A stretch of DNA of 64,000 bases from Gammaproteobacteria bacterium (GTDB lineage: Bacteria; Pseudomonadota; Gammaproteobacteria; GCA-001735895), in NCBI GenBank assembly GCA_050306135.1, contig JBNLGQ010000042.1, positions 1,233-65,232 on the forward strand. The letters run 5' to 3'. The translations under genes and the position numbers were made by a program. Below the pieces are notes generated by a model. It had not been told where the DNA came from and ran no database searches. It saw only the letters and a list, made by a program, of their open reading frames with translations. Shown here piece after piece: positions 21,403 to 42,235 of the stretch. Every line of letters begins with the position of its first letter. The stretch's first letter is position 1.

Positions 21403-21999
21403 ATGGATACATCACTAATTATTTTCCTCGTCGTTATTGCTCTGATTATCTTTTACATAATCGGTATTTTTAACAAACTGGTTTCTCTCAAAAACCGTTA
21501 TCTGAATGCTTTTTCTCAGATAGAGGTACAACTGAAACGTCGCTACGATCTGATACCCAATCTGGTGGAAACCGCCAAAGGCTACATAAAGCACGAAAGA
21601 GAAACACTGGAAGCAGTAATTCAGGCTCGAAATACTGCGGCCAATAGTCTGCAGAAAATTGCTTCTGACCCAGGCAATGCCAGCGCCATGGGTGAATTGA
21701 TGGGTGCAGAATCAAAATTAGCCGGTGCTCTGGGTAACTTCAATGTATTGATGGAGGCCTACCCTGATCTGAAGGCTAGCGAGAACATGATGCAATTAAG
21801 CGAAGAGCTGGTGACTACTGAAAACCGGGTGGCCTTCGCACGACAGGCATTCAATGATCAGGTGATGGAATATAATGCTTACCGTCAATCCTTTCCACAA
21901 ACGATTTTTGCCGCTACCTTTGGCCACCCCAAAGATGCCACATTACTTAAATTTGAAGATAGTGCTGCAATACAGTCTGCACCAAAGGTTTCATTCTAG
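21403..21999 (+). CDS. LemA family protein
   Basis: N-terminal TM helix followed by conserved LemA region ([36 protein letters not shown]). Confidence 0.8.
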
Positions 22000-22014
22000 T
22001 TTCATCACATTGCT

Positions 22015-23982
22015 ATGAATTTTTTTGCCTCTCAGGCACAGGCTCGCAGGAATACTTTTCAACTGGTTGTTCTGTTTATTCTTGCGGTCTGCTGTTTCAT
22101 TGTGCTGACAAATCTGGTTGTGATGCTGGCAATAGGTTTTTTTAAAAACTCTCAAATCACCGACTTGCAAACCATGATCCAGAACATGGACTGGTGGAGA
22201 TTCGGTATGATCGGGCTGGCGGTATGGATAGTGGTATTAGCAGGCAGTATCTATAAAATCATCGCATTATCAGCGGGTGGTAGAGTGATTGCTGAGGCCC
22301 TTGGGGGCAAACTTGTTTTACATAATTCTACTGATCGAAAACATCGACGTTTACTCAATGTAGTCTCTGAGATGGCGATAGCATCCGGAACCCCTGCACC
22401 ACCTGTTTATATCATGTCACAGGAGCACGGTATTAATGCCTTTGCTGCCGGCTACTCTAGCCGTGATGCCGTGATTAGTGTCACTCAGGGCCTTGTTGAT
22501 CATTTAAACCGTGAACAGTTACAGGGCGTTATAGCGCATGAATTCAGTCATATCTTTAATGGCGATATGCGACTTAACATCCAGTTGATAGGCGCCTTAA
22601 ATGGCATTCTGATCATCGGCATCATCGGTTATGAATTGCTGCGCTTACCATTTCGAGGATCGAGTTTCAGGTTAGGTAGTAGAAGCCGTAGTAGCGGTGG
22701 CGGAGATGCCAGACTAACCTTTGCCCTGATTGCTCTGGGGCTAAGCCTGATGATTATTGGCTACACCGGGACCTTTTTTGGGAATATGATCAAGGCAGCG
22801 GTCAGCCGACAACGTGAATATCTTGCCGATGCCTCTGCCGTACAATTCACCCGCAATCCTAAGGGGCTCGCAGGAGCATTAAAACGAATTGGAGGATTAG
22901 ATACAGGGTCACGTATGCAGGCCTCTGCTGCTGTCGAAATCAGCCATGCCTTTTTTGCTCAGGGGGTTTCCAGCTTTGTTGAATCTCTATTTGCCACACA
23001 CCCTCCGCTGATTAAACGTATAAAGCGAATCGATCCCTACTGGAATGGACATTTCATTACAAAAGATAGAATAGATACGGAAATGGCGAACGAGAGTTAT
23101 AAGGGAGCGGTTTCCTCTTTTGCAACTGATTCCTCGTCAGCACCAACGTCTACTACCCAGGAGTTAAATCAGGCTGTGCTAGCTACAGGCGAGCTAACGC
23201 AACAATCCATCGAACTCGCACGTACCCTGTTATCAGATATCTCCGCCAATATTCGTCAAACAGCTGAAGAGCCATTCGGTGCCAGGGCTGTCATCTATGC
23301 TTTACTCTTAGATAAGGCATATCCCGTTCGTGTTAAACAACTGGAACAGTTGCAGTACCATGCCGAGCGCGAGGTTTACCTGTTAACGCAGAAGATCATG
23401 TCAGAGATGGATGCCCTGGATATTCGTCTGCGCCTGCCCCTGATAGATATCACAATCCCTGTACTGAAGCAGCTTTCTAACCATCAATACCAGGCCTTCC
23501 GAGACAATGTCTCTTCTCTCATGGATGCCGATGGAAAAATTAATCTGATGGAGTGGTCACTACAGAAAATCCTGTTCAATCATCTAGATCAAAATTTTCA
23601 TAACCAGCCTAAGCTCATAGCCAGGTCTGCCGGGTTATCACAGCTCAAGGTAGAGGTTAGCATTGCTTTATCATTGTTAGCTATTGCTGGTCATAGCAAA
23701 ATTGAACAGGCGAGAGCAGCCTTTAAGACTGCGGTAACTCATCTTAAACTGGAGCATATAGACTTCATTGAGAAAAAAAAGTTGAAACTCTCCGTAATAG
23801 ATAATGCTTTGCAGAAATTACAGCACATGTCTTTAATGAATAAGATGGCATTACTTGAGTCCTGCATATTATGCATAGAACATGACCAGGTCAGTTCCAG
23901 CAGAGAGGTTGAAATATTGCGTGCATTTTCATCCGCAATAGACTGCCCTATTCCTGTGGTGGTTAATTCAAATCGGCCATAA
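22015..23982 (+). CDS. M48 family zinc metalloprotease (HtpX-like) with long C-terminal extension
   Basis: HExxH zinc motif (IAHEFSHIFNGD), several TM segments and about 300 extra C-terminal residues. Sits 15 nt downstream of the LemA gene. Confidence 0.75.
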   Translation: MNFFASQAQARRNTFQLVVLFILAVCCFIVLTNLVVMLAIGFFKNSQITDLQTMIQNMDWWRFGMIGLAVWIVVLAGSIYKIIALSAGGRVIAEALGGKLVLHNSTDRKHRRLLNVVSEMAIASGTPAPPVYIMSQEHGINAFAAGYSSRDAVISVTQGLVDHLNREQLQGVIAHEFSHIFNGDMRLNIQLIGALNGILIIGIIGYELLRLPFRGSSFRLGSRSRSSGGGDARLTFALIALGLSLMIIGYTGTFFGNMIKAAVSRQREYLADASAVQFTRNPKGLAGALKRIGGLDTGSRMQASAAVEISHAFFAQGVSSFVESLFATHPPLIKRIKRIDPYWNGHFITKDRIDTEMANESYKGAVSSFATDSSSAPTSTTQELNQAVLATGELTQQSIELARTLLSDISANIRQTAEEPFGARAVIYALLLDKAYPVRVKQLEQLQYHAEREVYLLTQKIMSEMDALDIRLRLPLIDITIPVLKQLSNHQYQAFRDNVSSLMDADGKINLMEWSLQKILFNHLDQNFHNQPKLIARSAGLSQLKVEVSIALSLLAIAGHSKIEQARAAFKTAVTHLKLEHIDFIEKKKLKLSVIDNALQKLQHMSLMNKMALLESCILCIEHDQVSSSREVEILRAFSSAIDCPIPVVVNSNRP

Positions 23983-27420: not shown

Positions 27421-27702
27421 TCAAGCTCCTAAACACCCATCAACAACACTTACAATTTCATTTTCTATTTGAGTACTCAGCATGCGTAACATCATACTAA
27501 GATTTACTTTGAGGTGAAAATTACCTTCGTCTATTTCAATGCTTCCGTTGAGTCCCTTGCGGCGAAATAACAGGATCTGGTCACTTTCCCATTCTGATCG
27601 GACTTCGAATCTGTTCTCTATATCTTTTTTAAGTTCATCAATCTTGAGCTTTAATTCATCTATCGAAAATTGATGGGAGCGAGTAATAGTAATTGCTGAC
27701 AT
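27421..27702 (-). CDS. Small PHA-system-family (TIGR02610-like) protein of unknown function
   Basis: 93-aa protein matching the conserved pattern of that family (RSH..., F.V.W..., L.F.R.G..G.I, L.V.L.ML). It is the last gene of the operon, 11 nt after the giant gene. Confidence 0.5.
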   Translation of the reverse strand: MSAITITRSHQFSIDELKLKIDELKKDIENRFEVRSEWESDQILLFRRKGLNGSIEIDEGNFHLKVNLSMMLRMLSTQIENEIVSVVDGCLGA

Positions 27703-27713
27703 TGCCTGTGGTT

Positions 27714-30700
27714 CTATCTTTTCTGTGGAGATCTACTTTGTTGGATCTGGGGTTTTACCTGCTTAGCTATGCTATCTAATTTACGATTTATCTCTGACAT
27801 ATTTTTATGTGTACCCAGATCTAAATCCAGCTTGCCATTCATAATTCGAACTAGAGGTTGCAGCGTATTCTCAAGTACATCAGCCAGTTTATCGGATGAT
27901 GTACTTCCTGAGTCATTAGGACTTTCTTCCTGAATACCCGCATTGATATTATCGACCAGTTGATTGATCGCTTTGGCTATATCCGAAAGTGCCTTCTGAT
28001 TTTGTTTTCTGTTAATAGCGATCTCTCGACTCTTTACTTCATTTTCTTCACTTCGAGATTTTTCAGCGCTGTCACGCCATGCATTGATACCACCAACCAG
28101 ATCATTAAGCTGTACTACAATTTTTGATCCGGTATCGGCATCATCACCACCCATTGCCTTATTGCGCATAAAATCAGCTTTGATTTGAGCCCAGCGCTGC
28201 TGTTGCTCTTCACTCATAGTCTCTCTAATTTCTACCAGTTTGAGTAAATTAGCCTCTGTGCCAGTAGTGAGTAATTGAGCCTCACCCTGATAGTGATCAT
28301 CAACCAGACGTATCAACTCATCGTCACTCATGATGGAAGATATCTTTTCCGCCATCTTATTCATGTTCCGATACGATCCCTGTAACTTGAATATTGGTTC
28401 GGTGCGGTATTTATCATCCTGTGCACTTGCTGCGATGTAGGCCTGGTTTACTTTCCAGACCACATTCTGGATTATTTTCATTTTCTGTAACACATCGACT
28501 ATTTCTTTAGTTTCTGCGGAGCTGTACTGATGTGAAAAATCGGTTGTTGCGACAGCAACCCCATTAGCCATGTCGATGAATTTGTAAACGTCGCTCATTT
28601 CACGCGTTGCAAGCGGTGCTAATACAGGATTAGATGTTAATGAGTTTTCGATATAACTGAGAGCAAACACATCTTCCTTGCCACTTAAGACATCACCCAG
28701 ATTATAAATATCTGCCCGGTTAGCAAGCATATCGGGTATCTCAAAGGCTTCACCCGATTCGGTATAAGGATTACCTGCCATGACGACACAAAACTTCTTG
28801 CCGCGCATGTCATAGGTTTTGGGCTGTTTTTTCCAGACCCCTTCAATACGCCTTGTACCATCAGAGAGTGAAATAAACTTTTGCAGAAATTCACTATTGG
28901 TATGCTGTATGTCATCAAGGTATAACATGACATTGTTGCCCATCTCCAGGGCCAGGTTAAGTTTTTCCAGCTCCTGTCTGGATGCACTGTTATCTGCCTG
29001 TTCTGGATCAACCGAGGTAATTGAGTGGCCGATAACCGGACAATTTATCTTCATAAAGATAAGCCCAAGTCGGTCGGCAACATATTCCATCAAGGTAGTT
29101 TTACCGTAACCTGGTGGAGAAATCATCAATAGCAGGCCCATTAAATCGGAACGCTTTTTATCGCCGACCGTTCCTATCTGTTTGGCCAGGTTATCACCAA
29201 TTAAAGGGAGATATACTTCGTTGATAAGCCGATTTCTGACAAAAGATGACAATGGTTTTGCCTTAAATTCTTCCAGCCTTAATTGTTGTCTCTTTTCAAC
29301 AATTATCTGGTGGCGTTTTTCTAAATAATTCTGATAAGCCGGTATTACCTGCTCGTGGTGAGTGCGATTACTATCCAGAAATTGATCAAGTTGAATGGTC
29401 AGTTGACGATTTTCAATCTTGTCATGCGTGCCGAGTAAGCCTTCGATATTGAATTGAATATCGCTCTCTCTATCCTCGCGATCTATTCTTTGTTCTGCGT
29501 TTAGTATTCCAATAGCTTCAACCACAAAACTTTTGAACTGCGTTTTTTGTTGTGACTGTATAAACGCATTGAGCCAGCTCTCTGCCAGTGCCCAGCGTTT
29601 GCCTACCTGCCCTTTCATATCATCTAATGCTTTTTGATAATCACGCCAGATGTTATGCGTCTTTAAGTGTGTAATAAATTCATCACAAAGTTGTCGTGCA
29701 TATTTCGTGGTTGCAAAGCTGATTCTTTCCTGTGCTAGCTCATCTGTTAAATATTCACTGGCACTAATCAGTAGACGCTGATCTTCAGGCAAGTGATGCT
29801 GAGTGACAAACTGCAACATGTGTTCAGCAATTTCATCTCGCAGAATATTCTGGGCATTGGTATCAGAAAAGATACTGGCCATCTGTGCTGCATTTCTGGC
29901 TCGCTGATGCCATAGTTTTTGCTCGTCTCCATTTTGAGTATTAGCCCAATAGATTGCGCCTAGTCCGCGAGCCGTTGGAGAGTATTTGAAGACTCCGGCG
30001 GTTTGGTACACCGGTACTATTTTAATAAGAATTAAGCTGGCATCATGATCATGTATGCCTTTTTCATATCCTTCCTTATAACGTGCAGAGGCAAAGCTTG
30101 TTACCAGTTTAAGCATATCTTTCTGGTCTGCCGCTGCGATACTTAAGGTCTCCCAGCTAATATTATCGTTATTATTTTCTGCTGCCTTAAGGATGCTATA
30201 GGCGAGATATTCTGCACGGCAAACCTGCTCATTTTCAGAGGGGATTTGCATAGACCAGTAATCTCGCATGCTGTTAAGCTCTGCATTGTCGAGAGCTTCA
30301 TAGAAATCGGTACCCGTTAAGCGGATATATAATTCATCGCCTCTGGGTAAAACGGTTAAATCCAGCTCCTGTGTATTGACCGAAAACTTGTGTCTCGGAC
30401 CCAGTTTGATAACCTGACCATCGGCTTCATACAGATCACTTTTATCTCTCAGTGAGCGAATCGATTGTTGCCTGACTGATTTTAACTGTGAATCCAGATC
30501 TTCGGCTTTTACGCTGTCATCTAATGCCCTTAATTTAGCGATGATATCGTTGATTTTTCCGACCAGACTGTCGGCACTAAAAAAGGTATTTAATTCATCC
30601 TGTGTTGAGAAACGTTTGACTCGACGCTGAACGCTTTGCAATATGCGTTCTCCCGCATCGGCGAGTGATTGTGCCTTGCGTTGCTGAGCATCGATTAAAC

Positions 30701-32993
30701 CCTGCTTATGTTCTTCAAATGTTTCGAATATTTCTTCGCGTTTTTTGACTATATCAGCAATGAAATCATCATAGTCTCCAAACTCAGCTTCGAGTTCTTC
30801 CATCTGTACCAGAAGTCTGGAAAACTGTTCATCACTTTTTGTCGGCGTGGTAGACATGCCGAGTGCGTTGTGAATACTCTGCTCCAACAGTTTGAGTCGT
30901 GCTGAAAACTGCGCAGTGGCTTCTGCGCTGCCCATGGTTTTACGTTGATGCTCAAGTTCTGCGTTTTGCTGATTGAGGCGGCTATATAGCTCAGAAACAG
31001 CATCGACTATTCTGGTTTGAACGGTGGCGTCTTCTACTTTTAATGTCGCCATCATTTCAGAAATCAGATCCAGAGATTGAGCCAGTTTCTGTAGCGTTTC
31101 AATATGAGGTTTTAATTCAGCGTTGGTTTTGCATTTAATACGTTCCGCTGCAACACTATCGAGTACCTTGTAATAACTTTTTAAAGCGCCTTCGGAACCC
31201 AGAAACTCAACCGTATGTGTATTAAGCGTTTGCTCAACTTTGGCAATATCAGTATCTAATTGTTCAATCTTATCAGTGTCGATATAGCGATATGATTTTA
31301 TCGTCATCAAATGACCACGATGCTGTCTTATGCTGAATAATCCATCGACATATTCCTGTGGGGAGTGCCAGCTATCAGGTTCGATATTACGTATTATTTC
31401 GAGTTGAGCTGCTTCTGCTTCTGTCAGTGCCTTGGTCGATTGCGCCCGAATACTTTCAACTTTTTCATATTCGTCTATCACCAGCTCGGCAGTATTTCCT
31501 ATCTGACGCAATAGTTTTGCAATTGCAGCCAGATCGGGCGAATCTAACCAGTAATAATTATCGAAAATTTTATGACAGGATTGACTGATACGATTATAGT
31601 GATCGGCTGATACATCCTCTAACAGCATACTTCTGCTGATGCTATATAGCTCAGAGATGCCTCGAACCAGTTCGGCATTACCAATTTTTCCATAAAAGCT
31701 TTGCGATGGTGGCTGTTTACTGGCATGGCTATCGCTGTAATAAGGCGTTTGCCAGATTTGTAATGGATGTACTCTGCCCGGTTCATCTTCTGCATAAAAG
31801 ATGATCATGCGTCCATCATCATATAAACCATAGCCATGGCCCTTTAACGGGTTCTGTAATGATTTTTCAATCAGATTGTATCCATACAGTACGATGACAT
31901 TGGTTTCCGGCTGGTAAAATACATACAGTACATCCTCACCATTAGGTGAACGCATCGAACGCTTGAAGACCAGATTTTCCAGGTTTTCATCGAATGTTTT
32001 AGTTTCTCCGGTGGTTAAATAATAACCGCCTGGAAAAATGATGCCCTGGTCTTCCGGTAGTTGTAAACAGGCGCCACCAATCGCATCAATTCGTTGTACA
32101 TCCTGTGTGTTTCGATTAAAGACCAGATAACGAAAATTTTCTTCGCGATAGGGTTTTATCTTTAACAGGATGAGCTGGTTAAGATTCGCGTAGAAAAATT
32201 CAGCATCGTCCAGAGACTGGTTTTCCTCTTCAACGGATTCTGAATATATACCGAGTCCGACATCAGTATTGTTTTCTACCTTAATGGTAATATCGCCACG
32301 AGAAGCATCAACAAACAGGGTATCCAGTATATTGATATGCGGATTACGTCCATCTACGACATCATCACGTTGGCACTCTACCCACTCAAAATCGTGACTT
32401 GCCGGTAACTGGATATCGCGCTCGCCACGGTTATCGATATACTCAATCTGTTTACCATCCGCAGAAACTTCCCAGCGGAATACACGAACATCTGTCAGCT
32501 TTTCACCAATCTGAAATGAGGCTAGCAACTTGTTATTTTTGAACACCAGCTGGGATAAAGCCGTATTTTTATAATAGGCATACAGCTCCTGAAATTCGGT
32601 TTGAAAGCGACTGTCGGCCAGAAAAGAATCTTTGACTGCAACCGATGTTAAATCATAGGCACCGTCTTTTTCATCGAGCATGTAGAGTGAAAGTACATCT
32701 TCGATACGCGTTTCTTTTCTCAGACCGATATGAACGTTATACCCAAACAGCACATATTCGCCGACCACAACCAGATCTTTTGCCTGACAGTTATTTTCAG
32801 TACGCAGTCGCAGGCGACCAAGAACTTTCATCTCGGTACTACCGAACTCTTGCTGACGTGCTGTATTGATGTCGCTGACTAACTTATCAAGTGATTGCTG
32901 CTGCTCGGTTAAGCGCTGACGAATAACTTCGTAAGCCCCACCCTCAGCCACTGCCTGTTCGGATATCGATGTCTTTTCAGTTTGATCTGTCAC
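27714..32993 (-). CDS. Giant (1759 aa) coiled-coil protein with MoxR/AAA_5-like AAA+ ATPase module
   Basis: Walker A MISPPGYGKTTLMEY at about aa 1290-1300 (nt about 29094-29120), Walker B VMLYLDD 56 aa later, and sensor-1 VVMAGNPY. A MoxR-like box follows (AGNPYTESGEAFEIPDMLANRAD, compare NP...G..LPEALLDRF). Flanking regions are dominated by heptad-like coiled coil. The roughly 450-aa N-terminal region is aromatic-rich and non-coiled. Confidence 0.7.
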   Translation of the reverse strand: MTDQTEKTSISEQAVAEGGAYEVIRQRLTEQQQSLDKLVSDINTARQQEFGSTEMKVLGRLRLRTENNCQAKDLVVVGEYVLFGYNVHIGLRKETRIEDVLSLYMLDEKDGAYDLTSVAVKDSFLADSRFQTEFQELYAYYKNTALSQLVFKNNKLLASFQIGEKLTDVRVFRWEVSADGKQIEYIDNRGERDIQLPASHDFEWVECQRDDVVDGRNPHINILDTLFVDASRGDITIKVENNTDVGLGIYSESVEEENQSLDDAEFFYANLNQLILLKIKPYREENFRYLVFNRNTQDVQRIDAIGGACLQLPEDQGIIFPGGYYLTTGETKTFDENLENLVFKRSMRSPNGEDVLYVFYQPETNVIVLYGYNLIEKSLQNPLKGHGYGLYDDGRMIIFYAEDEPGRVHPLQIWQTPYYSDSHASKQPPSQSFYGKIGNAELVRGISELYSISRSMLLEDVSADHYNRISQSCHKIFDNYYWLDSPDLAAIAKLLRQIGNTAELVIDEYEKVESIRAQSTKALTEAEAAQLEIIRNIEPDSWHSPQEYVDGLFSIRQHRGHLMTIKSYRYIDTDKIEQLDTDIAKVEQTLNTHTVEFLGSEGALKSYYKVLDSVAAERIKCKTNAELKPHIETLQKLAQSLDLISEMMATLKVEDATVQTRIVDAVSELYSRLNQQNAELEHQRKTMGSAEATAQFSARLKLLEQSIHNALGMSTTPTKSDEQFSRLLVQMEELEAEFGDYDDFIADIVKKREEIFETFEEHKQGLIDAQQRKAQSLADAGERILQSVQRRVKRFSTQDELNTFFSADSLVGKINDIIAKLRALDDSVKAEDLDSQLKSVRQQSIRSLRDKSDLYEADGQVIKLGPRHKFSVNTQELDLTVLPRGDELYIRLTGTDFYEALDNAELNSMRDYWSMQIPSENEQVCRAEYLAYSILKAAENNNDNISWETLSIAAADQKDMLKLVTSFASARYKEGYEKGIHDHDASLILIKIVPVYQTAGVFKYSPTARGLGAIYWANTQNGDEQKLWHQRARNAAQMASIFSDTNAQNILRDEIAEHMLQFVTQHHLPEDQRLLISASEYLTDELAQERISFATTKYARQLCDEFITHLKTHNIWRDYQKALDDMKGQVGKRWALAESWLNAFIQSQQKTQFKSFVVEAIGILNAEQRIDREDRESDIQFNIEGLLGTHDKIENRQLTIQLDQFLDSNRTHHEQVIPAYQNYLEKRHQIIVEKRQQLRLEEFKAKPLSSFVRNRLINEVYLPLIGDNLAKQIGTVGDKKRSDLMGLLLMISPPGYGKTTLMEYVADRLGLIFMKINCPVIGHSITSVDPEQADNSASRQELEKLNLALEMGNNVMLYLDDIQHTNSEFLQKFISLSDGTRRIEGVWKKQPKTYDMRGKKFCVVMAGNPYTESGEAFEIPDMLANRADIYNLGDVLSGKEDVFALSYIENSLTSNPVLAPLATREMSDVYKFIDMANGVAVATTDFSHQYSSAETKEIVDVLQKMKIIQNVVWKVNQAYIAASAQDDKYRTEPIFKLQGSYRNMNKMAEKISSIMSDDELIRLVDDHYQGEAQLLTTGTEANLLKLVEIRETMSEEQQQRWAQIKADFMRNKAMGGDDADTGSKIVVQLNDLVGGINAWRDSAEKSRSEENEVKSREIAINRKQNQKALSDIAKAINQLVDNINAGIQEESPNDSGSTSSDKLADVLENTLQPLVRIMNGKLDLDLGTHKNMSEINRKLDSIAKQVKPQIQQSRSPQKR

Positions 32994-33082: not shown

Positions 33083-35074
33083 TTAAGAATTTAAATCAGC
33101 TTTGGTATCTTCACTATCTGACCCAGGAATGGTTTTGGGTACATTACTGGCACCGCCCATGAGCTTTTCCATCAAAGCCTGAACAATCGGACTTTTCTCG
33201 ATAAAACCGTTCACTGCATTTCCGGCACCCATGCCTTTGGCAAGCTTGTCGAAGTAATCGCCCTGGCCACCGACGATATCGATATTTGCATTTTTAAGCG
33301 CAGCAGCCAGTACATCTGCCTGATCTCCTGCAATTTCTTTATTGGCTTCGATAGAGGCCATAACTTCCTGTAGATGAACATCAAGATTAAGGCGGAATTC
33401 TTCGAACTCACGAGACTCTTTATTCATATTGTTCATTGCGGCAAATTTTTCTACCAGAGCGTCGGCTTCAGCCTTACCTTTTTCGCGTAAAACTTCAGCA
33501 TGACTCATTCCGATTTCCTTATTAGCTACGGCTTCAGCTTTGCCCAGTTCCTCATTACCGCGGGCTTCTGCAGTTAATTTCTCTTCCAGTACTCGGGCTT
33601 CTGCAAGACCTGCTTTTTCGGATGAAATAGCTTTCGCTTCCTGAACATGCGCTTCGGCAATGCCTTCCTTCTCAGTGGCATCCGCTTTCGCTTCCATGAC
33701 TCGAGCTTCTGCCAACCCTTTAGCAGCAGCGGTTGCCTGCGCACCTTCAGCTAATTTCTTCTCAGCTTCAGATTTTTTCGATGCAGCTTCTAATTCGGCC
33801 TGTGCCATTACATTAATTTCACGGGCTTTATGTGTTGCTTTCTTTTCATCCGCTTCTGCTCGCATCACAGTATGTACCAGTTCTTCCTGAGCGGACGCCT
33901 CGGCTGCTAGCACCAGCACCTGTTTATTACGGTCTGCTTCAGAAACTTCTTTAACTTCTTTAATACGCTCTTCTTCTTCGGTTACTTTCTTTTCAACCGC
34001 GATTCTTTCACTGATGGTCTGCGCAATGACTTTCTTTTCTTCTTCAAGTGCCTTGTCTTTTTCAATAATGGCTAATTCAACTTCGCGATGTCGATTAACC
34101 TCTTCCATTTTCTGCGCCCGGATGACCTTTTCCTTTTCGATCACAACGGCACGTTCGCGGTTTTGTTCTGCTATCTCGACCTGACGAAGTTTGACCTGAT
34201 TACGAATTTCGAGTTGCTCATTGGTTTCGATGGTAGCCTGATCCGCTTTAAGACGCTCTTCTTCCTGAACCTTTTTGGTTTCTGCAGCTTCACGCGCCTG
34301 TACAGTTTCTATTTCACGTTTCTGCTTTGACTCAGCATCGACCTGCTGACGCTCTAAAGCCAGCATGGCTTCGCGGGTTTCAACATTCTTTTTGGTAATG
34401 GCGAGGGTTTCATCTTTTTCCAGACGGTTAGTCTGGACATTCTGGATAGCGGTGATTTCAGTGATTCTACGAATACCTTCTGAATCAAGAATATTAGTGG
34501 GATCGAGCTGGGACTTCGGTGTTTGTTCCAGATAATCAATTGCAACGTCTTCTAATACATAGCCATTCAGATCATCACCAATCACCTCGATAATTTTCTC
34601 CCTGAACTTGATTCTGTTTTCAAACAGGTCAAGAAATACCATGTTTTTACCCACGGTCTTTAATGCCTCAGAAAACTTGGCTCCGAATAATTCGTCTACC
34701 GCATCTTTATCTGACGCCCGGTCTACACCAATCGATTTGGCAACTCGAAGCACATCTTCTCTGGTTTCGTTCACTCTCAGGTAAAACGCCACGATAATAT
34801 CTGCACGAAGATTATCCTGACAAATCAGGCCATCTTTCCCTCTACGGTCAATTTCCAGGGTAATGAGAGAAATCTTCATGACTTCCATCTTGTGGATAAC
34901 CGGCCACACAAGACCACCTGTAAAATGCACCTTGGGCTTTGATGACATATCGTTGACGATTAATGCGTATCCCTGAGGTACTTTTTTATAAAAGGCACTG
35001 AAAATCATCGCTAAAGCGACTATAGCGATTAAGATAATGCCGCCGTAAGTTAATATTGGTAATAGTAATTCCAT
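33083..35074 (-). CDS. yqiK: Flotillin-like SPFH/Band-7 protein (YqiK family) with long C-terminal Ala/Glu-rich coiled-coil repeats
   Basis: N-terminal TM anchor followed by an SPFH/PHB domain. The C-terminus has tandem EA repeats (LAEARVMEAKA... GLAEARVLEEK). Sits immediately downstream of an NfeD-like yqiJ homologue, as in the E. coli yqiJK operon. Confidence 0.75.
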   Translation of the reverse strand: MELLLPILTYGGIILIAIVALAMIFSAFYKKVPQGYALIVNDMSSKPKVHFTGGLVWPVIHKMEVMKISLITLEIDRRGKDGLICQDNLRADIIVAFYLRVNETREDVLRVAKSIGVDRASDKDAVDELFGAKFSEALKTVGKNMVFLDLFENRIKFREKIIEVIGDDLNGYVLEDVAIDYLEQTPKSQLDPTNILDSEGIRRITEITAIQNVQTNRLEKDETLAITKKNVETREAMLALERQQVDAESKQKREIETVQAREAAETKKVQEEERLKADQATIETNEQLEIRNQVKLRQVEIAEQNRERAVVIEKEKVIRAQKMEEVNRHREVELAIIEKDKALEEEKKVIAQTISERIAVEKKVTEEEERIKEVKEVSEADRNKQVLVLAAEASAQEELVHTVMRAEADEKKATHKAREINVMAQAELEAASKKSEAEKKLAEGAQATAAAKGLAEARVMEAKADATEKEGIAEAHVQEAKAISSEKAGLAEARVLEEKLTAEARGNEELGKAEAVANKEIGMSHAEVLREKGKAEADALVEKFAAMNNMNKESREFEEFRLNLDVHLQEVMASIEANKEIAGDQADVLAAALKNANIDIVGGQGDYFDKLAKGMGAGNAVNGFIEKSPIVQALMEKLMGGASNVPKTIPGSDSEDTKADLNS

Positions 35075-35141: not shown

Positions 35142-35810
35142 TTAATCTAAATGTTGTTTAAAATCTGCTTCACTAACCACGTTAAAAACCTGTTTCTCTT
35201 TATTGTGTTCAATCACTACTACCCTGTCTCCGGTGTTAAAGGTCTGATCCCCCACTGCCCTGACTTTCACAATCAGACTCGCTCCTTCAAGCTGACATTC
35301 TGCTTCACCAAAATCTGCATCCGCGCGGCTACTTCTAATACGACAGGTCGCCCCTAACAAAGACTTTGATATAGGCGCCTGGTTTACTTTTCTAAACAAT
35401 CCTTTAAGTGGTTTTATCATGGTTGCTGTAACTGGAATTGAAACCAAAAAACTCACGATGGCTACAGCAATATTTATCGCAACCTGAACCAGTGAAATAA
35501 ACTGCGGAAAAGTCGGGATAAGAAGAATAAGGAAGTAGCAGATAATCCATGCGTTGAGTACTAACAGGCTGATCACGATAGTGATCGGTACACCTGTTAA
35601 ACCCAAAGTGGTCAATAGCCCTGCAATACCACCTATTTCAGAAATATCACCATCCAGCTCCAGATCCATATCGATATCTACACCAACATCAAATGCATCC
35701 ATGTCAAAAGTCCCGGTAAACGCTAGCAGCCAATATCCAACAACTACCACCAGTAAGGTGGTGTAAATCACTGTTGGAAAACTGCTTATATTGACTAGAA
35801 AACCATCCAT
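35142..35810 (-). CDS. yqiJ: NfeD-like inner-membrane protein (YqiJ/DUF1449 family) with C-terminal OB-fold
   Basis: Three TM helices. An acidic loop (DMDAFDVGVDIDMDLELDGD) and a C-terminal beta-rich segment are typical of NfeD partners of SPFH proteins. Confidence 0.65.
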   Translation of the reverse strand: MDGFLVNISSFPTVIYTTLLVVVVGYWLLAFTGTFDMDAFDVGVDIDMDLELDGDISEIGGIAGLLTTLGLTGVPITIVISLLVLNAWIICYFLILLIPTFPQFISLVQVAINIAVAIVSFLVSIPVTATMIKPLKGLFRKVNQAPISKSLLGATCRIRSSRADADFGEAECQLEGASLIVKVRAVGDQTFNTGDRVVVIEHNKEKQVFNVVSEADFKQHLD

Positions 35811-35812
35811 TT

Positions 35813-36385
35813 CTAATTTCCTCGAATTATTTTACGCATTGTTTTATATTTCCTACCTGCCCATAGCCAGGCACAAAAAACACCAGATATGAATCCAAAT
35901 ATATGTCCTTCAAAACTAATCCCTGGGCGAAAGTCAAACAGAGTGAAGACCGCACCGCTATAAATTATCAGGGTGATAACTGCAATCGCAATATTTTTAA
36001 AACTACGATTAAAATACGCATTACTGATCAGATATCCCCAATACCCCATAACTAACCCGGAAGCACCCGCGTGTAACCCATCTCTTGCAAAAATCCACAC
36101 CAGTGACCCGGTGAATAGCATGATTAAAAATGTAACACGAGGCAACTTATTGAGCGAACTGACAAAAAAACCAAGAACCAGCAGCGGTATGGTATTGGAT
36201 AACAAATGCCCAATACTGTTGTGCAGAAAGTGCATGGTGATTATGCCGTATAAACTACCCACTTCTCTAGGGCGTAGTGCATAATGATTTAAGCCATGAC
36301 TTAAAAGCAGATTCACTATTTCTATACCCCATAATAAGACTATATAAATTAGTAATAATTTATAGTCCTTCATTGCCTTTCGCAT
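35813..36385 (-). CDS. Rhomboid family intramembrane serine protease
   Basis: Six TM helices, a catalytic GxSG (HAGASGLVMGY) and a TM6 His motif (HIFGFISG). Lies 2 nt from yqiJ. Confidence 0.75.
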   Translation of the reverse strand: MRKAMKDYKLLLIYIVLLWGIEIVNLLLSHGLNHYALRPREVGSLYGIITMHFLHNSIGHLLSNTIPLLVLGFFVSSLNKLPRVTFLIMLFTGSLVWIFARDGLHAGASGLVMGYWGYLISNAYFNRSFKNIAIAVITLIIYSGAVFTLFDFRPGISFEGHIFGFISGVFCAWLWAGRKYKTMRKIIRGN

Positions 36386-36389
36386 TAGA

Positions 36390-36719
36390 CTATTGCTTTT
36401 CCTCTTTCATTACGTTGGCAATAATCTCTTTTGCTGCCTGCTCTTTAATAGCCAGTTTATCCTCTGGATCGAGTTTATAAATATTAGCTAAAATCTCATA
36501 ATCTTTAGCTGTCAATGATATGGTCAACCTGGGTCGAACCGGCTTTTTCCTCGGCAAACCCAAAATTTCACGCATTTGGTCCGATGGTGACAAACCATTT
36601 TGGCTAGCCATTAACTTTAGCTTTTTTTGCGCTTCGGTTGAAATATCGAAAGCGACCTGGGTTGCCTTGACTGCTTTCTTTTCATTTTCCCAGCGTTCGG
36701 GTTTACCTTTTTTCATCAA
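36390..36719 (-). CDS. Small DNA-binding-like protein with two tandem ribbon-helix-helix (CopG/Arc/MetJ-type) repeats
   Basis: Two repeats follow a beta-strand/helix/helix pattern: VAFDISTEAQKKLKLMASQNGLSPSDQMREILGL and RLTISLTAKDYEILANIYKLDPEDKLAIKEQAAKEII. The family assignment is inferred from pattern only. Confidence 0.45.
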   Translation of the reverse strand: MMKKGKPERWENEKKAVKATQVAFDISTEAQKKLKLMASQNGLSPSDQMREILGLPRKKPVRPRLTISLTAKDYEILANIYKLDPEDKLAIKEQAAKEIIANVMKEEKQ

Positions 36720-36741: not shown

Positions 36742-37428
36742 TTAACTTTTCGCTTTTAACCGTGCTAGAACATCTTCCGCCGAATGCTTTTCATTTTTTA
36801 TACCAGCAGCTTTCAGCTTATTATCCAGCTCATCACCACCAAGTTCCTTGCGCAGTTGAATGCCAGCATTGAGCTTATCCTGTTCAGATTGTTGCTTCTG
36901 TTTAATTCTTTCTAACGATTCACGAGCAGAACCGATAGCGCTATCATTGGCTGTGACAGTTTGAGTAACCGATTTAGTAGCCTGTTGAACTGACTCTCTA
37001 GCCTTGGCCATTGCCAGCTCTCTTTCATGCTCGGCGATAATTTTTTCGGCTTCCTGTATCTGAGACTTCAATATCGATACATTCTGATCATAAGTGGCAA
37101 GTTCATTACTCACTTCCTCAGCAGAAGCTTCCAGCTTAGCAATCTTACCAGCAACTTCTAAAGCAAGCGCTTCATCCGATTTTTCCAGGGCTTTAACTGC
37201 ATAGCCTTCATTTTCGGTTATCTTTTCCATGATGTCTGCCAGTTTTCTTTCAGTAGCCATCTTCTTTGCCACTATTTCAGTCAAGCCTTCTTTAGCTTCG
37301 GCAAGACTGGCTTTTGAATCTTCGATTTCCTGTTCAAAAATCCTCATCGCCTGTGTATCGACAATGGCTTCGCCCAGTTCTCTGGCTCCACCGCGTAAAG
37401 ATGTTAATAATTTTTTCATCACGTTCAT
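36742..37428 (-). CDS. PspA/IM30 family protein (YjfJ-like; bacterial ESCRT-III superfamily)
   Basis: 228-aa all-helical protein with the PspA-like N-terminal amphipathic helix and coiled-coil hairpin (LGEAIVDTQAMRIFEQEIEDSKASLAEAKEGLTEIVAKK...). Confidence 0.8.
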   Translation of the reverse strand: MNVMKKLLTSLRGGARELGEAIVDTQAMRIFEQEIEDSKASLAEAKEGLTEIVAKKMATERKLADIMEKITENEGYAVKALEKSDEALALEVAGKIAKLEASAEEVSNELATYDQNVSILKSQIQEAEKIIAEHERELAMAKARESVQQATKSVTQTVTANDSAIGSARESLERIKQKQQSEQDKLNAGIQLRKELGGDELDNKLKAAGIKNEKHSAEDVLARLKAKS

Positions 37429-37468: not shown

Positions 37469-37876
37469 TTACTTAATGTAATCTTCTAAGGCCTGCAGTG
37501 TATCTATTGAGTTGGCTGCCAATGTAATCAATTCCTGGCAGATGCTTTCATTATTAGACTCACGATCAAGCGCTCCAAATATGGTGTAATAATCATCCAC
37601 CAGAGCAAACGCACTCAATGGCATGGGTACATTCAGCTCCAGTAGATATTGATTTAATTCAGCCTCCATTTCCGAATGAATCTCCTGTTTGGTGAATAGA
37701 TAAGAAATACATAATATTTGAGTTTCAGTCACGGTAATGAAGATCGGAATTTCCTCAAGCCCACTGACCTCAACCCTTAACACCTCCTGTCCACTATTCA
37801 TCGGTAAACAATTAAACCGATAACCCTTAAATTCACAGTCTGACAAATGTTTAGACAAATCTTGCAATACACTCAT
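37469..37876 (-). CDS. YjfI-like DUF2170 protein
   Basis: 135-aa protein whose C-terminal region (DDYYTIFGALDRESNNESICQELITLAANSIDTLQALEDY) resembles what I recall of E. coli YjfI, the gene upstream of the PspA-like yjfJ. This comparison is from memory and unverified. It is the first gene of the operon, with an AAGGAG RBS at 37881-37886. Confidence 0.55.
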   Translation of the reverse strand: MSVLQDLSKHLSDCEFKGYRFNCLPMNSGQEVLRVEVSGLEEIPIFITVTETQILCISYLFTKQEIHSEMEAELNQYLLELNVPMPLSAFALVDDYYTIFGALDRESNNESICQELITLAANSIDTLQALEDYIK

Positions 37877-39158: not shown

Positions 39159-39695
39159 ATGCACTGTCCGAAATGTAAAACGATTATTCTTAAGCCAACC
39201 AAACTAGATGACAGCCTGCCCGTATTTGGCTGCCCTGAGTGTGGTGGATCACTGTTATCTCTTCTCTATTATAGAGATTGGGCGGAAAGAGTTACCCTCG
39301 ATTCTTCTGATTTTGAATCTAGTAGTGAGGTAGTAGAAGATGCTGACACCAAAACTTCTTTGAGCTGTCCTAAGTGCAGCCGAATTATGACAAAGTACTC
39401 CATATCTGGATCGATACATAGTCGTCTAGATCTGTGTGGCAATTGTGACGAGGCCTGGCTTGATGGTGGGGAATGGCAATTGCTTAAATCTCTGGAAATG
39501 GCAAACAGGTTACCAAAAATTTTCACCGAACAGTGGCAGCAAAAGGTTCGAAGCGAAAAAATGGCATTGAGTAAGATCGAACGCCTGAAAAAAGTTATTG
39601 GTGAAATTGATACTGAGAAAGCCGTAGAAATAAAGAAATGGATTAATGAGCACGCTAATAAGGCTAGCATTATTCAATTCATAGGTTCTGATTAG
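39159..39695 (+). CDS. Tandem TFIIB-type zinc-ribbon protein (zf-TFIIB/PF13453-like) with C-terminal coiled coil
   Basis: Two CxxC...CxxC ribbons (CPKC...CPEC; CPKC...CGNC). The second is followed by the family-typical WLDGGEW motif. Confidence 0.55.
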   Translation: MHCPKCKTIILKPTKLDDSLPVFGCPECGGSLLSLLYYRDWAERVTLDSSDFESSSEVVEDADTKTSLSCPKCSRIMTKYSISGSIHSRLDLCGNCDEAWLDGGEWQLLKSLEMANRLPKIFTEQWQQKVRSEKMALSKIERLKKVIGEIDTEKAVEIKKWINEHANKASIIQFIGSD

Positions 39696-39874: not shown

Positions 39875-40114
39875 TTAAGTAAAAGCATTAAAAGCAATAA
39901 TGGTATGCGTATCCCGAATCCCAGGAATGCTATGTATCTGAGTTTCTACATAACGTCCGATATCTTCGGAGTTATCCAGATAACACTTCGCCATTAAATC
40001 GTACTGACCTGAAATCGAGAAAACTTCTGACACACTGTCTCTTTCGACCAGCTCAGCTGCGACTTCATAAGCCTTGCCCAGTTCACATTTTAATTGTACG
40101 AATATGGCTTGCAT
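39875..40114 (-). CDS. Stand-alone Lrp/AsnC ligand-binding (RAM) domain protein
   Basis: About 79 aa matching the AsnC_trans_reg C-terminal domain. The ATG at 40114 has an AGGAAA RBS. The track ORF begins at a TTG at 40159. Confidence 0.55.
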   Translation of the reverse strand: MQAIFVQLKCELGKAYEVAAELVERDSVSEVFSISGQYDLMAKCYLDNSEDIGRYVETQIHSIPGIRDTHTIIAFNAFT

Positions 40115-40171
40115 GTAACTTTCCTGAGATAGATTTGATTCCAGATGAGTATAAACCAACCGCTATTCTGG

Positions 40172-40486
40172 TCAATCTATAGCTGCGTATACCTGGTCAT
40201 TATCGATCTTGCTAGGGTATGTCTGTACATCGCTCTCCAGCGGTGCACACAGTGCCTTACCCGTTTTGATACAAAACTTGCCCTGGTGCAGAGGGCATTC
40301 AATCTGCCCGTCTTCGACAAAGCCATCACTTAGTCTGGCCAGACCATGGGTGCAGATATTATCCGTCACATACACCTCGCCTTGTATACTGTAGATGGCC
40401 AGATCTTTTCCATCTACTACAACACCGATAACGTCATCATCTATAAGCTCATTGACGCTAACAATTGTTTTCCATTGATCTCCCAT
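40172..40486 (-). CDS. Rieske-type [2Fe-2S] ferredoxin component of the ring-hydroxylating oxygenase system (NagAb-like)
   Basis: 104 aa with CTHG...CPLHQGKF Rieske ligands. Confidence 0.8.
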   Translation of the reverse strand: MGDQWKTIVSVNELIDDDVIGVVVDGKDLAIYSIQGEVYVTDNICTHGLARLSDGFVEDGQIECPLHQGKFCIKTGKALCAPLESDVQTYPSKIDNDQVYAAID

Positions 40487-40494
40487 TACTCACC

Positions 40495-40968
40495 TCACAC
40501 AGGATATATGACAGAATTAGGCACCATTTCGCTATCGTATACGGCTCTACGGCTTTTAAATTTCAAACCCTGTTCTGTCCTTTGAACTTCATCAATATAG
40601 CGACCTGCATTAAATACCGTCGTCATACCATCGTATTTGGTGCGCATAACAGAATAATTGGCTTCAGAATATATGACATCACCTTCCACTTTGATCACAT
40701 GCGGAGCACCGACAATGTGGCGTTGATAATAGGGGTCATAGAAAAGGGTTTCCTTGATACCATACACGCGGTCTACCAGCATTTCCCTGCTTTCAAGATC
40801 CAGCAGGCCCAGCGGCATACCTCGTTCATAGTTCTCACGCGGTTGTAGGCTATACACACAATCCTCAGTGAAAAATTCAGGCCACTCGTCCCAGTTATCT
40901 GAATCCACAACCAGAGAGTATTCGGCATAAAGGTTTAATAGTTCGTAATAGGTTTCGAAATTGATCAT
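40495..40968 (-). CDS. Ring-hydroxylating oxygenase small (beta) subunit (NagH-like)
   Basis: NTF2/SnoaL-like beta-subunit fold. The start is at the ATG at 40968 (MINFETYY) with a GGAGGT RBS, 4 nt after the alpha-subunit stop. Confidence 0.8.
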
Positions 40969-40972
40969 AGTC

Positions 40973-42235
40973 TTATACCTCCATCGTCTTGCGCCAGTAG
41001 TTGTACATGCCACGTATCAGGGTTTCAGTAACCATGTGCTCGCTATCTGCGATATCAGTGCCACCCATCTCAACAAGCGTACGATGTGATGGTTTTGTCT
41101 CAAAACCTTCCTGTGAGAACTCGATGACTTCACCGTCATCGGCCGATACGAATCCTGCAGGACCAAACAGATTGGCCTGTATTAAACGACGTTTCACCAT
41201 CTCTTCATCATCATCTTCATAACAGAAATGCGTCCAGACAAAATCAAAGCTATCTTTACCATTGGGCTGTATGTGTCGGGTAGAGACACTATTCACCTGT
41301 TGCTGGAAAATGACTGAAGGGAAAACCGTTGTCATTACAGCCGTTGGACCGCCCCACCAGGACTCCTGAACGATATCCAGCAGTCGGTTATCGTTAACCT
41401 TCATGTCTTCCTTGAAGCTTTCAATACCATTGACCACCTCGTCTACCTTACCGCCCTTGCCTCTTGTAGAGATCATTGCCGCATGACGAAACTTATCATC
41501 CATACGTAATTGCGATTCATTGTCCGCACGCCACAGGCCAAAGGTTACAAACCAGGTATGTAACAGTCCGGGATGGTAAGGATCTTTGATATTTTCCTGC
41601 ATCAGCTTCCAGTTACCGGGAATACGTTGTTTGCGATAGCCGAGGATCTTTAGCTTTCGACCATCAAAGGTACGATCAAAATACTTTAATATTTCTGGGC
41701 CTAAAAAATCTTCTAAAGACTCTACATTATGATCAAAGGAAGCAAACACCACGCCATTGCGTATAGCAACCTTGAGCTTTGTTAAACCGTGATCCTTTGG
41801 GTGAAAATCCTTTGGCATACCACCATTGACCTTACCGTCTTTCTTGACCCCACGTAAAAATGGTACGCCCTGTAAATCGCCATTATGTGCATAATTCCAC
41901 TGGTGATAAGGACAGACAAAATCCTTGCGATTGCCATGTCTCTCACGGCAAAAGCGCATACCACGATGTGCACAAACGTTTTCTACAACAAAAATTTCAT
42001 CATCCTTTCCACGCGTCATAATAACGGAACGCTCACCCACAAATGTGCGTTTGAAGTCTCCGTGTTCGGGGATCTCGGCTTCTAAGCCGACATAGCACCA
42101 GTGGTTTGAATAAAAAAAACGTTCTAACTCTTTCTGGTAAAGATCTTGCGAGGTATAAGCCCAGAAAGGGATACGACTAGTGCCCTGTTGTTTCCACTTT
42201 TCTTCTACGGGAAAAGCATTTGATGCTTCATTCAT
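40973..42235 (-). CDS. Ring-hydroxylating oxygenase large (alpha) subunit, salicylate-5-hydroxylase/anthranilate-dioxygenase-like (NagG/AndAc family)
   Basis: Rieske CAHRG...CPYHQWNY and catalytic iron motif DPYHPGLLH. 420 aa. Confidence 0.8.

Follow-up and report, generated by a model that had tools for sequence, protein, structure and literature searches.

In a 64,000-nucleotide stretch of DNA from a gammaproteobacterium (assembly GCA_050306135.1, contig JBNLGQ010000042.1, positions 1,233 to 65,232; hereafter the window), a giant gene on the minus strand codes for a 1759-residue protein that very likely belongs to the BacE family, that of PA3728/PA14_16190 of Pseudomonas aeruginosa, marked by the succession of DUF3686, DUF7902 and AAA domains. 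This protein is probably the ATPase of a conserved membrane-stress module, in which it accompanies a YqiJ/NfeD-like protein and a flotillin-like scaffold protein; the linkage of its gene to those for flotillin and YqiJ is tight and ancient, and the linkage to PspA is frequent. Its single ATPase module is a genuine AAA+ domain of the pre-sensor-1-hairpin superclade and forms an isolated family of its own. The BacE family is known, has been described computationally and is experimentally almost untouched, and the window protein is a further member of it. An initial annotation of this gene had seen a MoxR/AAA_5-type ATPase core embedded in a coiled-coil scaffold of unusual architecture; the observation of the giant protein is real, and that interpretation is partly right, though it claims too much for the MoxR assignment and makes the architecture out to be rarer than it is.

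The reading frame of the gene is unbroken over all 1759 codons (from 32993 down to 27714), and the domains of its product follow one another in the order N-terminal helix, beta-propeller of about seven blades, helical middle region with DUF7902, one AAA+ module, helical lid and tail:

27714..32993, minus strand: giant open reading frame (1759 residues, GTG start), apparently a BacE-type beta-propeller and AAA+ ATPase, named "DNA repair ATPase" in databases
31551..32891, minus strand: Pfam DUF3686 (PF12458), residues 35-481, E=3.4e-192; N-terminal helix, propeller of about seven blades, then helices
30939..31187, minus strand: Pfam DUF7902 (PF25472), residues 603-685, E=6.8e-22; helical middle region with strong heptads at residues 630-687
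28689..29243, minus strand: AAA+ alpha/beta core, residues 1251-1435, the most conserved stretch of the protein; its elements are Walker A GYGKT (1295-1299), Walker B LYLDD (D1360, D1361), a pre-sensor-1 beta-hairpin (1382-1395), sensor-1 N1408 and the candidate Arg finger R1426
28134..28688, minus strand: helical lid, residues 1436-1620, from AlphaFold2 and family alignments, with a conserved GSYRNM (1539-1544) that holds the candidate sensor-2 Arg R1542
27717..28133, minus strand: C-terminal helical tail, residues 1621-1759, variable save for PLVR.M.GKLDLDL (1713-1726)

All four motifs on which the initial annotation relied are present in the translation where it had placed them, namely SPPGYGKTT (residues 1292-1300), MLYLDD (1356-1361), VVMAGNPY (1403-1410) and EIPDMLANRAD (1418-1428), and the nucleotide range given for the core, about 28640-29190, is correct. 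The distance of 56 residues from the end of Walker A to the start of Walker B also stands, while sensor-1 lies about 42 residues further on rather than 39. A single AAA+ module some 1290 residues into the protein is likewise real: the Pfam models AAA_5 (27.5 bits, cut-off 22) and AAA (27.6 bits, cut-off 21.2; residues 1288-1414) both match above their thresholds, so the motifs reflect more than chance. The core comprises the most conserved 200 residues of the protein, and the motif residues of the nucleotide site are invariant in 64 homologues of 57-88% identity; in the family alignments Walker A, the Asp-Asp pair of Walker B, the sensor-1 Asn, R1426 and R1542 are all invariant or nearly so. 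The Asp-Asp form of Walker B (LYLDDIQH; 28911-28928 on the minus strand, residues 1356-1361) is found without exception among the 64 close homologues, and almost every distant one has it too.

The N-terminal region of about 450 residues, for which the initial annotation could name no motif, corresponds to DUF3686, whose profile is matched end to end (positions 2-448 of 448). AlphaFold2 models were built for residues 1-500 and 1150-1759. The first of these (pLDDT, the predicted local distance difference test, 86.6; pTM, the predicted template modelling score, 0.83) shows a predicted helix at residues 19-50, followed by an all-beta domain at residues 56-415 with about seven four-stranded blades, and further helices after it. 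Foldseek searches of the PDB with this model recovered beta-propellers only (probability 1.0, identity 8-12%), among them propellers of the WD40 type, CyRPA, the propeller of prolyl oligopeptidase, paraoxonase and YncE. As every match is a propeller, the region once described as aromatic-rich and free of internal repeats is a generic beta-propeller, that is, an internally repetitive fold. The remainder of the protein had been taken for long heptad-rich helix. This is true of about 206 residues by a crude score (20-49, 487-514, 561-592, 630-687, 1492-1519 and 1656-1685), but not of the whole, which also contains DUF7902, two conserved segments without a coiled-coil look (residues 841-900, KLGPRHKFSVNTQELDLT, and residues 961-990, EGYEKGIHDHDA) and a beta-hairpin predicted by AlphaFold2 at residues 1180-1201. 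Sequence (phmmer) and profile searches of the PDB gave no match to either the propeller or the middle region. The C-terminal tail (residues 1621-1759) is missing from the high-GC homologues.

Far from being an oddity, the protein has at least 4967 homologues at E<=1e-5. The 120 best of these are 54-100% identical to it and mostly 1720-1815 residues long (a few are truncated), and DUF3686 and DUF7902 occur in all 120, together with one or more AAA-type Pfam domains. Those that bear a name are listed as "DNA repair ATPase", "AAA family ATPase" or "MoxR-like ATPase", and "DNA repair ATPase" is the usual name among the homologues as a whole. The architecture is thus not unusual: Pfam has domains for the family, Ravi et al. 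(2024) have described it, and it is very likely that of BacE; the dynein- or midasin-like motor or tether logic suggested earlier finds no support. An identical sequence is present in NCBI, and the nearest named relatives are Kangiellaceae (Aliikangiella, 72%). Two homologues with 77-80% identity are labelled as Mariprofundaceae/Zetaproteobacteria metagenome-assembled genomes, while the remaining close relatives are Gammaproteobacteria (Kangiellaceae); the zetaproteobacterial labels could reflect a binning error or horizontal transfer.

The giant protein is colinear with its orthologue in P. paraeruginosa over residues 5-1744, with 52% identity and the same Pfam content. The order of genes in that locus is a BacA equivalog (NCBIfam 340 bits, cut-off 300), PspA, a YqiJ-like protein, a 688-residue flotillin-like protein, the 1746-residue giant protein and a PLD/HKD hydrolase, with recJ nearby. 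These flanking genes match bacABCDEF, and the giant protein of this locus is the BacE orthologue. In P. aeruginosa, bacABCDEF is the "biofilm-associated cluster" of Wallart (2024; PMC10948618), in which PA14_16190 (PA3728) was named bacE on the basis of reverse-transcription PCR, which showed co-transcription linking bacD, bacE and bacF, and of an 8.9-fold increase of BacE in a bacA mutant; PA3729-PA3732 had been defined earlier as the bac cluster by Mace et al. (2008). The products of PA3728-PA3732 were also induced together in a proteome study. In P. aeruginosa the operon influences the formation of biofilms, the production of rhamnolipids and virulence, and its genes respond when the cells are infected by phage. 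Both the architecture of the giant ATPase and its operon had already been described by Ravi et al. (2024; mSystems, PMC11237479), who also report abbreviated flotillin-YqiJ(-AAA+) operons across bacteria and archaea; the window system differs from theirs in nothing of substance, and the ATPase is given neither a clade assignment nor a mechanism there.

In the window the giant gene is one of eight co-directional genes on the minus strand, which are separated by gaps of 2-89 nucleotides. The other seven, in the order in which they are read, are:

37469..37876, minus strand: DUF2170/YjfI protein with a CesT/Tir-like chaperone fold (Pfam DUF2170, E=7e-33); homologue of BacA/PA3732
36742..37428, minus strand: PspA/IM30 protein of the ESCRT-III superfamily, YjfJ type (Pfam PspA_IM30, E=2.1e-36); homologue of BacB/PA3731
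36390..36719, minus strand: basic protein of 109 residues that weakly resembles ribbon-helix-helix (RHH) proteins (FitA-like_RHH, E=0.006, below cut-off), between the pspA and rhomboid genes
35813..36385, minus strand: rhomboid intramembrane protease of 190 residues (Pfam Rhomboid, E=2.6e-18), with the GASG Ser and GH..G His motifs intact
35142..35810, minus strand: YqiJ/YuaF (NfeD-like) membrane protein of 222 residues, assigned to its family after Ravi et al. (PMC11237479); homologue of BacC/PA3730
33083..35074, minus strand: flotillin-like SPFH protein of 663 residues, with an N-terminal transmembrane segment, an SPFH-like region and a long Glu/Ala/Lys-rich helix; homologue of BacD/PA3729
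27421..27702, minus strand: PHA_gran_rgn protein of 93 residues (Pfam E=8.9e-21), 11 nucleotides downstream of the giant gene

The succession of DUF2170, PspA, YqiJ-like and flotillin-like genes upstream of the giant gene is that of the P. aeruginosa bac operon. Unlike that operon, the window cluster has the RHH-like and rhomboid genes between those for PspA and YqiJ, a PHA_gran_rgn gene downstream in place of the PLD/HKD gene bacF, and a DUF2170 protein that is not a BacA equivalog (46.8 bits against the NCBIfam BacA cut-off of 300); moreover, no sigma-54 consensus (TGGCAC-N5-TTGC, with up to two mismatches) occurs on the coding strand upstream of its first gene, and the window-wide counts of this motif are those expected by chance.

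The window proteins were compared by tblastn with 80 gammaproteobacterial genomic loci. In 76 of them the gene directly upstream of the giant one codes for a flotillin-like protein, which confirms the link to flotillin that the initial annotation had implied in proposing to localise the protein relative to flotillin foci. A YqiJ-like gene stands directly upstream of the flotillin gene in 68 loci, with PspA further upstream in 54 and DUF2170 in 43; a rhomboid gene adjoins the cluster, either upstream or immediately downstream, in 43 as well. The module is thus usually preceded by the DUF2170 CesT-like chaperone and the PspA/ESCRT-III-family protein, and is often joined by the rhomboid protease. 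Three of the four loci without a flotillin match have no upstream DNA, and the fourth, L033, is a genuine exception. The triad of YqiJ, flotillin and giant protein, which is the abbreviated operon form of Ravi et al., recurs in metagenome contigs of 71-75% GC, where the giant protein is 34% identical to that of the window and colinear with it, the flotillin 46% and the YqiJ-like protein 25% (E=5e-12) identical; the metagenome scan with the high-GC homologue yielded four loci, which demonstrate the triad and are too few for statistics. The window flotillin-like protein itself has no match in Pfam, NCBIfam or PDB sequence searches, and its SPFH assignment follows from the 46%-identical high-GC homologue (locus L083), which does match Pfam Band_7 (E=4e-12), as well as from the work of Ravi et al.; this subfamily of flotillins seems to be poorly covered by the present SPFH and flotillin models.

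The model of residues 1150-1759 (mean pLDDT 72) places the elements of the AAA+ module in the order alpha0 (1251-1274), beta1 and P-loop, alpha1, beta2 (1312-1317), a loop, alpha2 (1336-1351), beta3 or the Walker B strand (1355-1360), alpha3, the pre-sensor-1 hairpin, beta4 (1401-1405), N1408 and the helical lid. The strands of the hairpin (1382-1387 and 1390-1395) are predicted between alpha3 and the sensor-1 strand; such a hairpin is common to the MoxR and HCLR clades and does not discriminate between them. With the MoxR (NorQ, CbbQ and RavA) and HCLR (ClpB NBD2, ClpA, Lon and RuvB) proteins the module shares the AAA+ fold, this hairpin, the sensor-1 Asn, an Arg finger in an (I/L)P..L.(N/D)R box and a candidate sensor-2 Arg; it departs from them in its low identity (12-19%), its Asp-Asp Walker B and its location about 1290 residues into a 1759-residue protein. 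The classical AAA clade (Vps4, p97 and FtsH) was considered and rejected, as the module does not show the hallmarks of that clade, namely the lack of a pre-sensor-1 hairpin, paired Arg fingers in the second region of homology and the lack of a sensor-2 Arg.

One alternative, which we regard as unlikely, is that the protein is a bona fide MoxR chaperone like RavA, NorQ or CbbQ that matures a partner or inserts a cofactor into it, with the long N-terminal part acting as an adaptor. The AAA_5 match above cut-off, the resemblance of its GNPY...IP..L.NR stretch to the NP...LP..L.DRF box of MoxR and the predicted pre-sensor-1 hairpin are all compatible with this. However, the generic AAA model scores the same as AAA_5, and among 26 diverse members of the family AAA matches 26, AAA_5 24, AAA_22 23 and RuvB_N 20, whereas the MoxR-specific AAA_3 matches none; no NCBIfam MoxR model matches the giant protein either. 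The Arg-finger box of Clp and Lon is (F/I)PxE(F/L)LNRxD (PExLNRxD) and that of MoxR is LPEAxLDRF, and IPDMLANRAD fits the former as well as the latter. In the secondary structure predicted by AlphaFold2 with medium confidence, alpha2 (1336-1351) is uninterrupted, with no hairpin that could be a helix-2 insert, and the beta2-loop-alpha2-beta3 layout appears to resemble Clp and Lon. Foldseek searches with the module returned NorQ (MoxR; E=7e-5), RuvB (1.2e-4), ClpA (1.7e-4), MCM (1.8e-4) and CbbQ (2e-4), with Clp, Lon and RuvB structures scoring equal to or better than those of MoxR, so that, as far as the model goes, structural neighbours do not separate the clades. Whether the query was the full protein, its AAA segment or the alignment of the family, sequence and profile searches of the PDB gave only weak matches to the P-loop stretch of Rix7, NVL, p97 and RuvB. 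Nor does any neighbouring open reading frame of the window code for a VWA/MIDAS domain of the sort that would be the partner of a MoxR protein. When residues 1230-1620 were compared with 1.84 billion cluster representatives, just 872 clusters matched at E<=1e-3 and 345 at E<=1e-30, and the best 150 listed were all strong matches of the same family (E<=3e-90). Throughout the family, proteins 1500-2000 residues long carry the module at about residue 1200-1290, the shorter matches being fragments. The module therefore stands as an isolated AAA+ family and cannot be assigned to the MoxR clade.

An Asp-Asp pair in the Walker B motif is characteristic of the DnaA/ORC and STAND switches rather than of unfoldases. 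Its invariance in place of the Asp-Glu form hints, at the level of sequence, at slow, switch-like hydrolysis.

Bacterial flotillins and PspA-family proteins build large membrane-bound polymers, and SPFH proteins are paired with AAA+ machines in HflK/C-FtsH, prohibitin-m-AAA and SLP2-PARL-YME1L, the last of which includes a rhomboid protease. By analogy with such systems, the giant ATPase would most likely act as an ATP-driven remodeller or assembly factor for flotillin and PspA assemblies at the inner membrane. The translation has no obvious transmembrane segment and the protein is therefore inferred to be cytoplasmic; it might form AAA+-mediated oligomers at the inner membrane, on the cytoplasmic side, with the propeller and helical arms binding flotillin and/or PspA polymers. 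Binding and hydrolysis of ATP could then drive the assembly, remodelling or disassembly of these polymers during envelope stress, in a role like that of Vps4 for ESCRT-III or of FtsH-type AAA+ proteins for SPFH cages, though without a protease domain. We consider a general partnership with a membrane scaffold reasonably likely. It is more tentative, and somewhat doubtful, that the BacE-type propeller-AAA+ protein represents the missing bacterial remodeller of flotillin cages and/or PspA polymers at the damaged inner membrane, drawn from a separate, isolated AAA+ lineage with an Asp-Asp Walker B. According to a review of 2025, a Vps4-like ATPase "appears absent in bacteria"; the BacE family, whose genes almost always have a flotillin gene as their neighbour and in many cases pspA too, would be an obvious candidate for such a role.

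As in the SPFH-AAA+ pairs, an SPFH scaffold is coupled to an AAA+ machine (in the window, through genetic linkage), and the rhomboid is shared with the SLP2 case; unlike in those pairs, the AAA+ protein has neither a protease domain nor a transmembrane segment and bears a beta-propeller, and unlike FtsH it is of the pre-sensor-1-hairpin type and not of the classical lineage. As in ESCRT-III/Vps4, the gene for a protein of the ESCRT-III superfamily, PspA, is linked to that for an AAA+ ATPase that could regulate polymer dynamics, but the giant ATPase has no MIT domain, and PspA is encoded in about two thirds of the loci as against the nearly constant flotillin.

Several observations weigh against the proposed role as a remodeller. 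The confidence of the AlphaFold2 model is low exactly at the lead-in to the P-loop and at the loop of sensor-1 and the Arg finger. The Asp-Asp Walker B may mean poor hydrolysis, and a distant member (P0262) with a degenerate Walker B, LNGIEH, may from its sequence be catalytically dead. In a locus from a Methyloprofundus metagenome-assembled genome (L033, 1-10000), the 10 kb upstream of the giant gene hold neither a flotillin nor a YqiJ gene; among the related loci whose upstream DNA extends over the full 10 kb, it is the only one in which neither adjoins the giant gene. Gene linkage is evidence of functional association and not of mechanism; in the window the hint of co-regulation comes from the short intergenic gaps, the co-transcription data being from P. 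aeruginosa. Lastly, the partner of the ATPase could be something other than flotillin or PspA.

A different role, which on balance is improbable, is that of an anti-phage or conflict system, in which the propeller-AAA+ protein would be the infection sensor that licenses an effector (the PLD/HKD hydrolase or the rhomboid) rather than a protein for housekeeping repair of the membrane. Every phage-infected sample of P. aeruginosa shows induction of a set of 17 genes that includes PA3728-PA3732, a PLD/HKD hydrolase is encoded in some of the operons, and an Asp-Asp Walker B is typical of switch-like NTPases. However, Psp-type genes answer envelope stress in general, and PA3731 is also induced by osmotic shock. 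A scan against PADLOC-DB 2.0 covered the giant, flotillin-like, YqiJ-like, rhomboid, PHA_gran_rgn and MCP proteins, with PspA, DUF2170 and the RHH-like protein outside its set, and gave no significant match: the best was IetA for the giant protein (15 bits, E=0.0026), and the flotillin-like, YqiJ-like, rhomboid and PHA_gran_rgn proteins had none. The cluster is furthermore chromosomal, syntenic and vertically conserved in Gammaproteobacteria, unlike the patchy defence islands, and its sequence composition is unremarkable.

The least tenable alternative, which takes the database names at their word and sees in the protein a DNA-repair ATPase like SMC, Rad50 and SbcC, has in its favour the Pfam title of DUF3686 ("ATPase involved in DNA repair"), the NCBI and JGI names of many homologues, the presence of recJ two genes downstream in Pseudomonas and weak RuvB P-loop matches, but is highly improbable: Walker A (residue 1295) lies in a single AAA+ module and not at the N-terminus of a split ABC head, the 56-residue spacing of Walker A and B (1295-1361) is unlike that of a split SMC-type head, no SMC, Rad50 or SbcC match appears in Pfam, NCBIfam or PDB sequence and profile searches, the RuvB matches (14-21 bits) span some 45 residues about the P-loop, the genes conserved nearby code for membrane proteins and not DNA-handling ones, with recJ unlinked in the window, and literature searches on DUF3686, and on the name "DNA repair ATPase" together with flotillin, turned up no paper that backs this name. 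The implication of the initial annotation that the protein is not of the SMC/Rad50 type is borne out; the DNA-repair reading is already largely refuted, and the widespread label "DNA repair ATPase" for the BacE family appears to be an unsupported annotation.

As an instance of the BacE-type membrane-stress module, the window cluster, which comes from a marine gammaproteobacterium, is clean and complete and retains an intact rhomboid; it represents no new kind of system. Its 109-residue RHH-like protein is kept at the same position in nine loci with 55-88% identity and, judging from its sequence, could be a cluster-specific regulator. The PHA_gran_rgn gene lies directly 3' of the giant gene in ten loci (Kangiellaceae and Psychromonas), and in Pseudomonas its slot is occupied by a rhomboid or PLD/HKD gene; the link of this protein to polyhydroxyalkanoate granules is nominal only. 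Scans for sigma-70 promoters and terminators over the cluster gave background levels, and a megablast of the 9-kb region against plasmids gave no match.

Near the cluster, on the plus strand (39159-39695), a 178-residue protein with an N-terminal zinc ribbon of the TFIIB type (Pfam E=3.6e-11) is encoded, homologues of which occur less than 10 kb from the giant gene in 23 of the 80 loci; in Kangiellaceae its gene often directly follows the pair of giant and PHA_gran_rgn genes (e.g. L007, L008, L010 and L025), and it may belong to the cluster as an accessory gene that has so far gone unrecognised. About 4 kb from the cluster, on the plus strand (21403-23982), a LemA-family protein (198 residues) is followed by a 655-residue protein with an M48 peptidase domain; the pair is membrane-associated and is not conserved with the giant-gene cluster. 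The minus strand at 39875-42235 codes for a Rieske ring-hydroxylating dioxygenase set (alpha, beta and Rieske ferredoxin) together with a protein bearing an AsnC-type ligand-binding domain, which are unrelated to the cluster.

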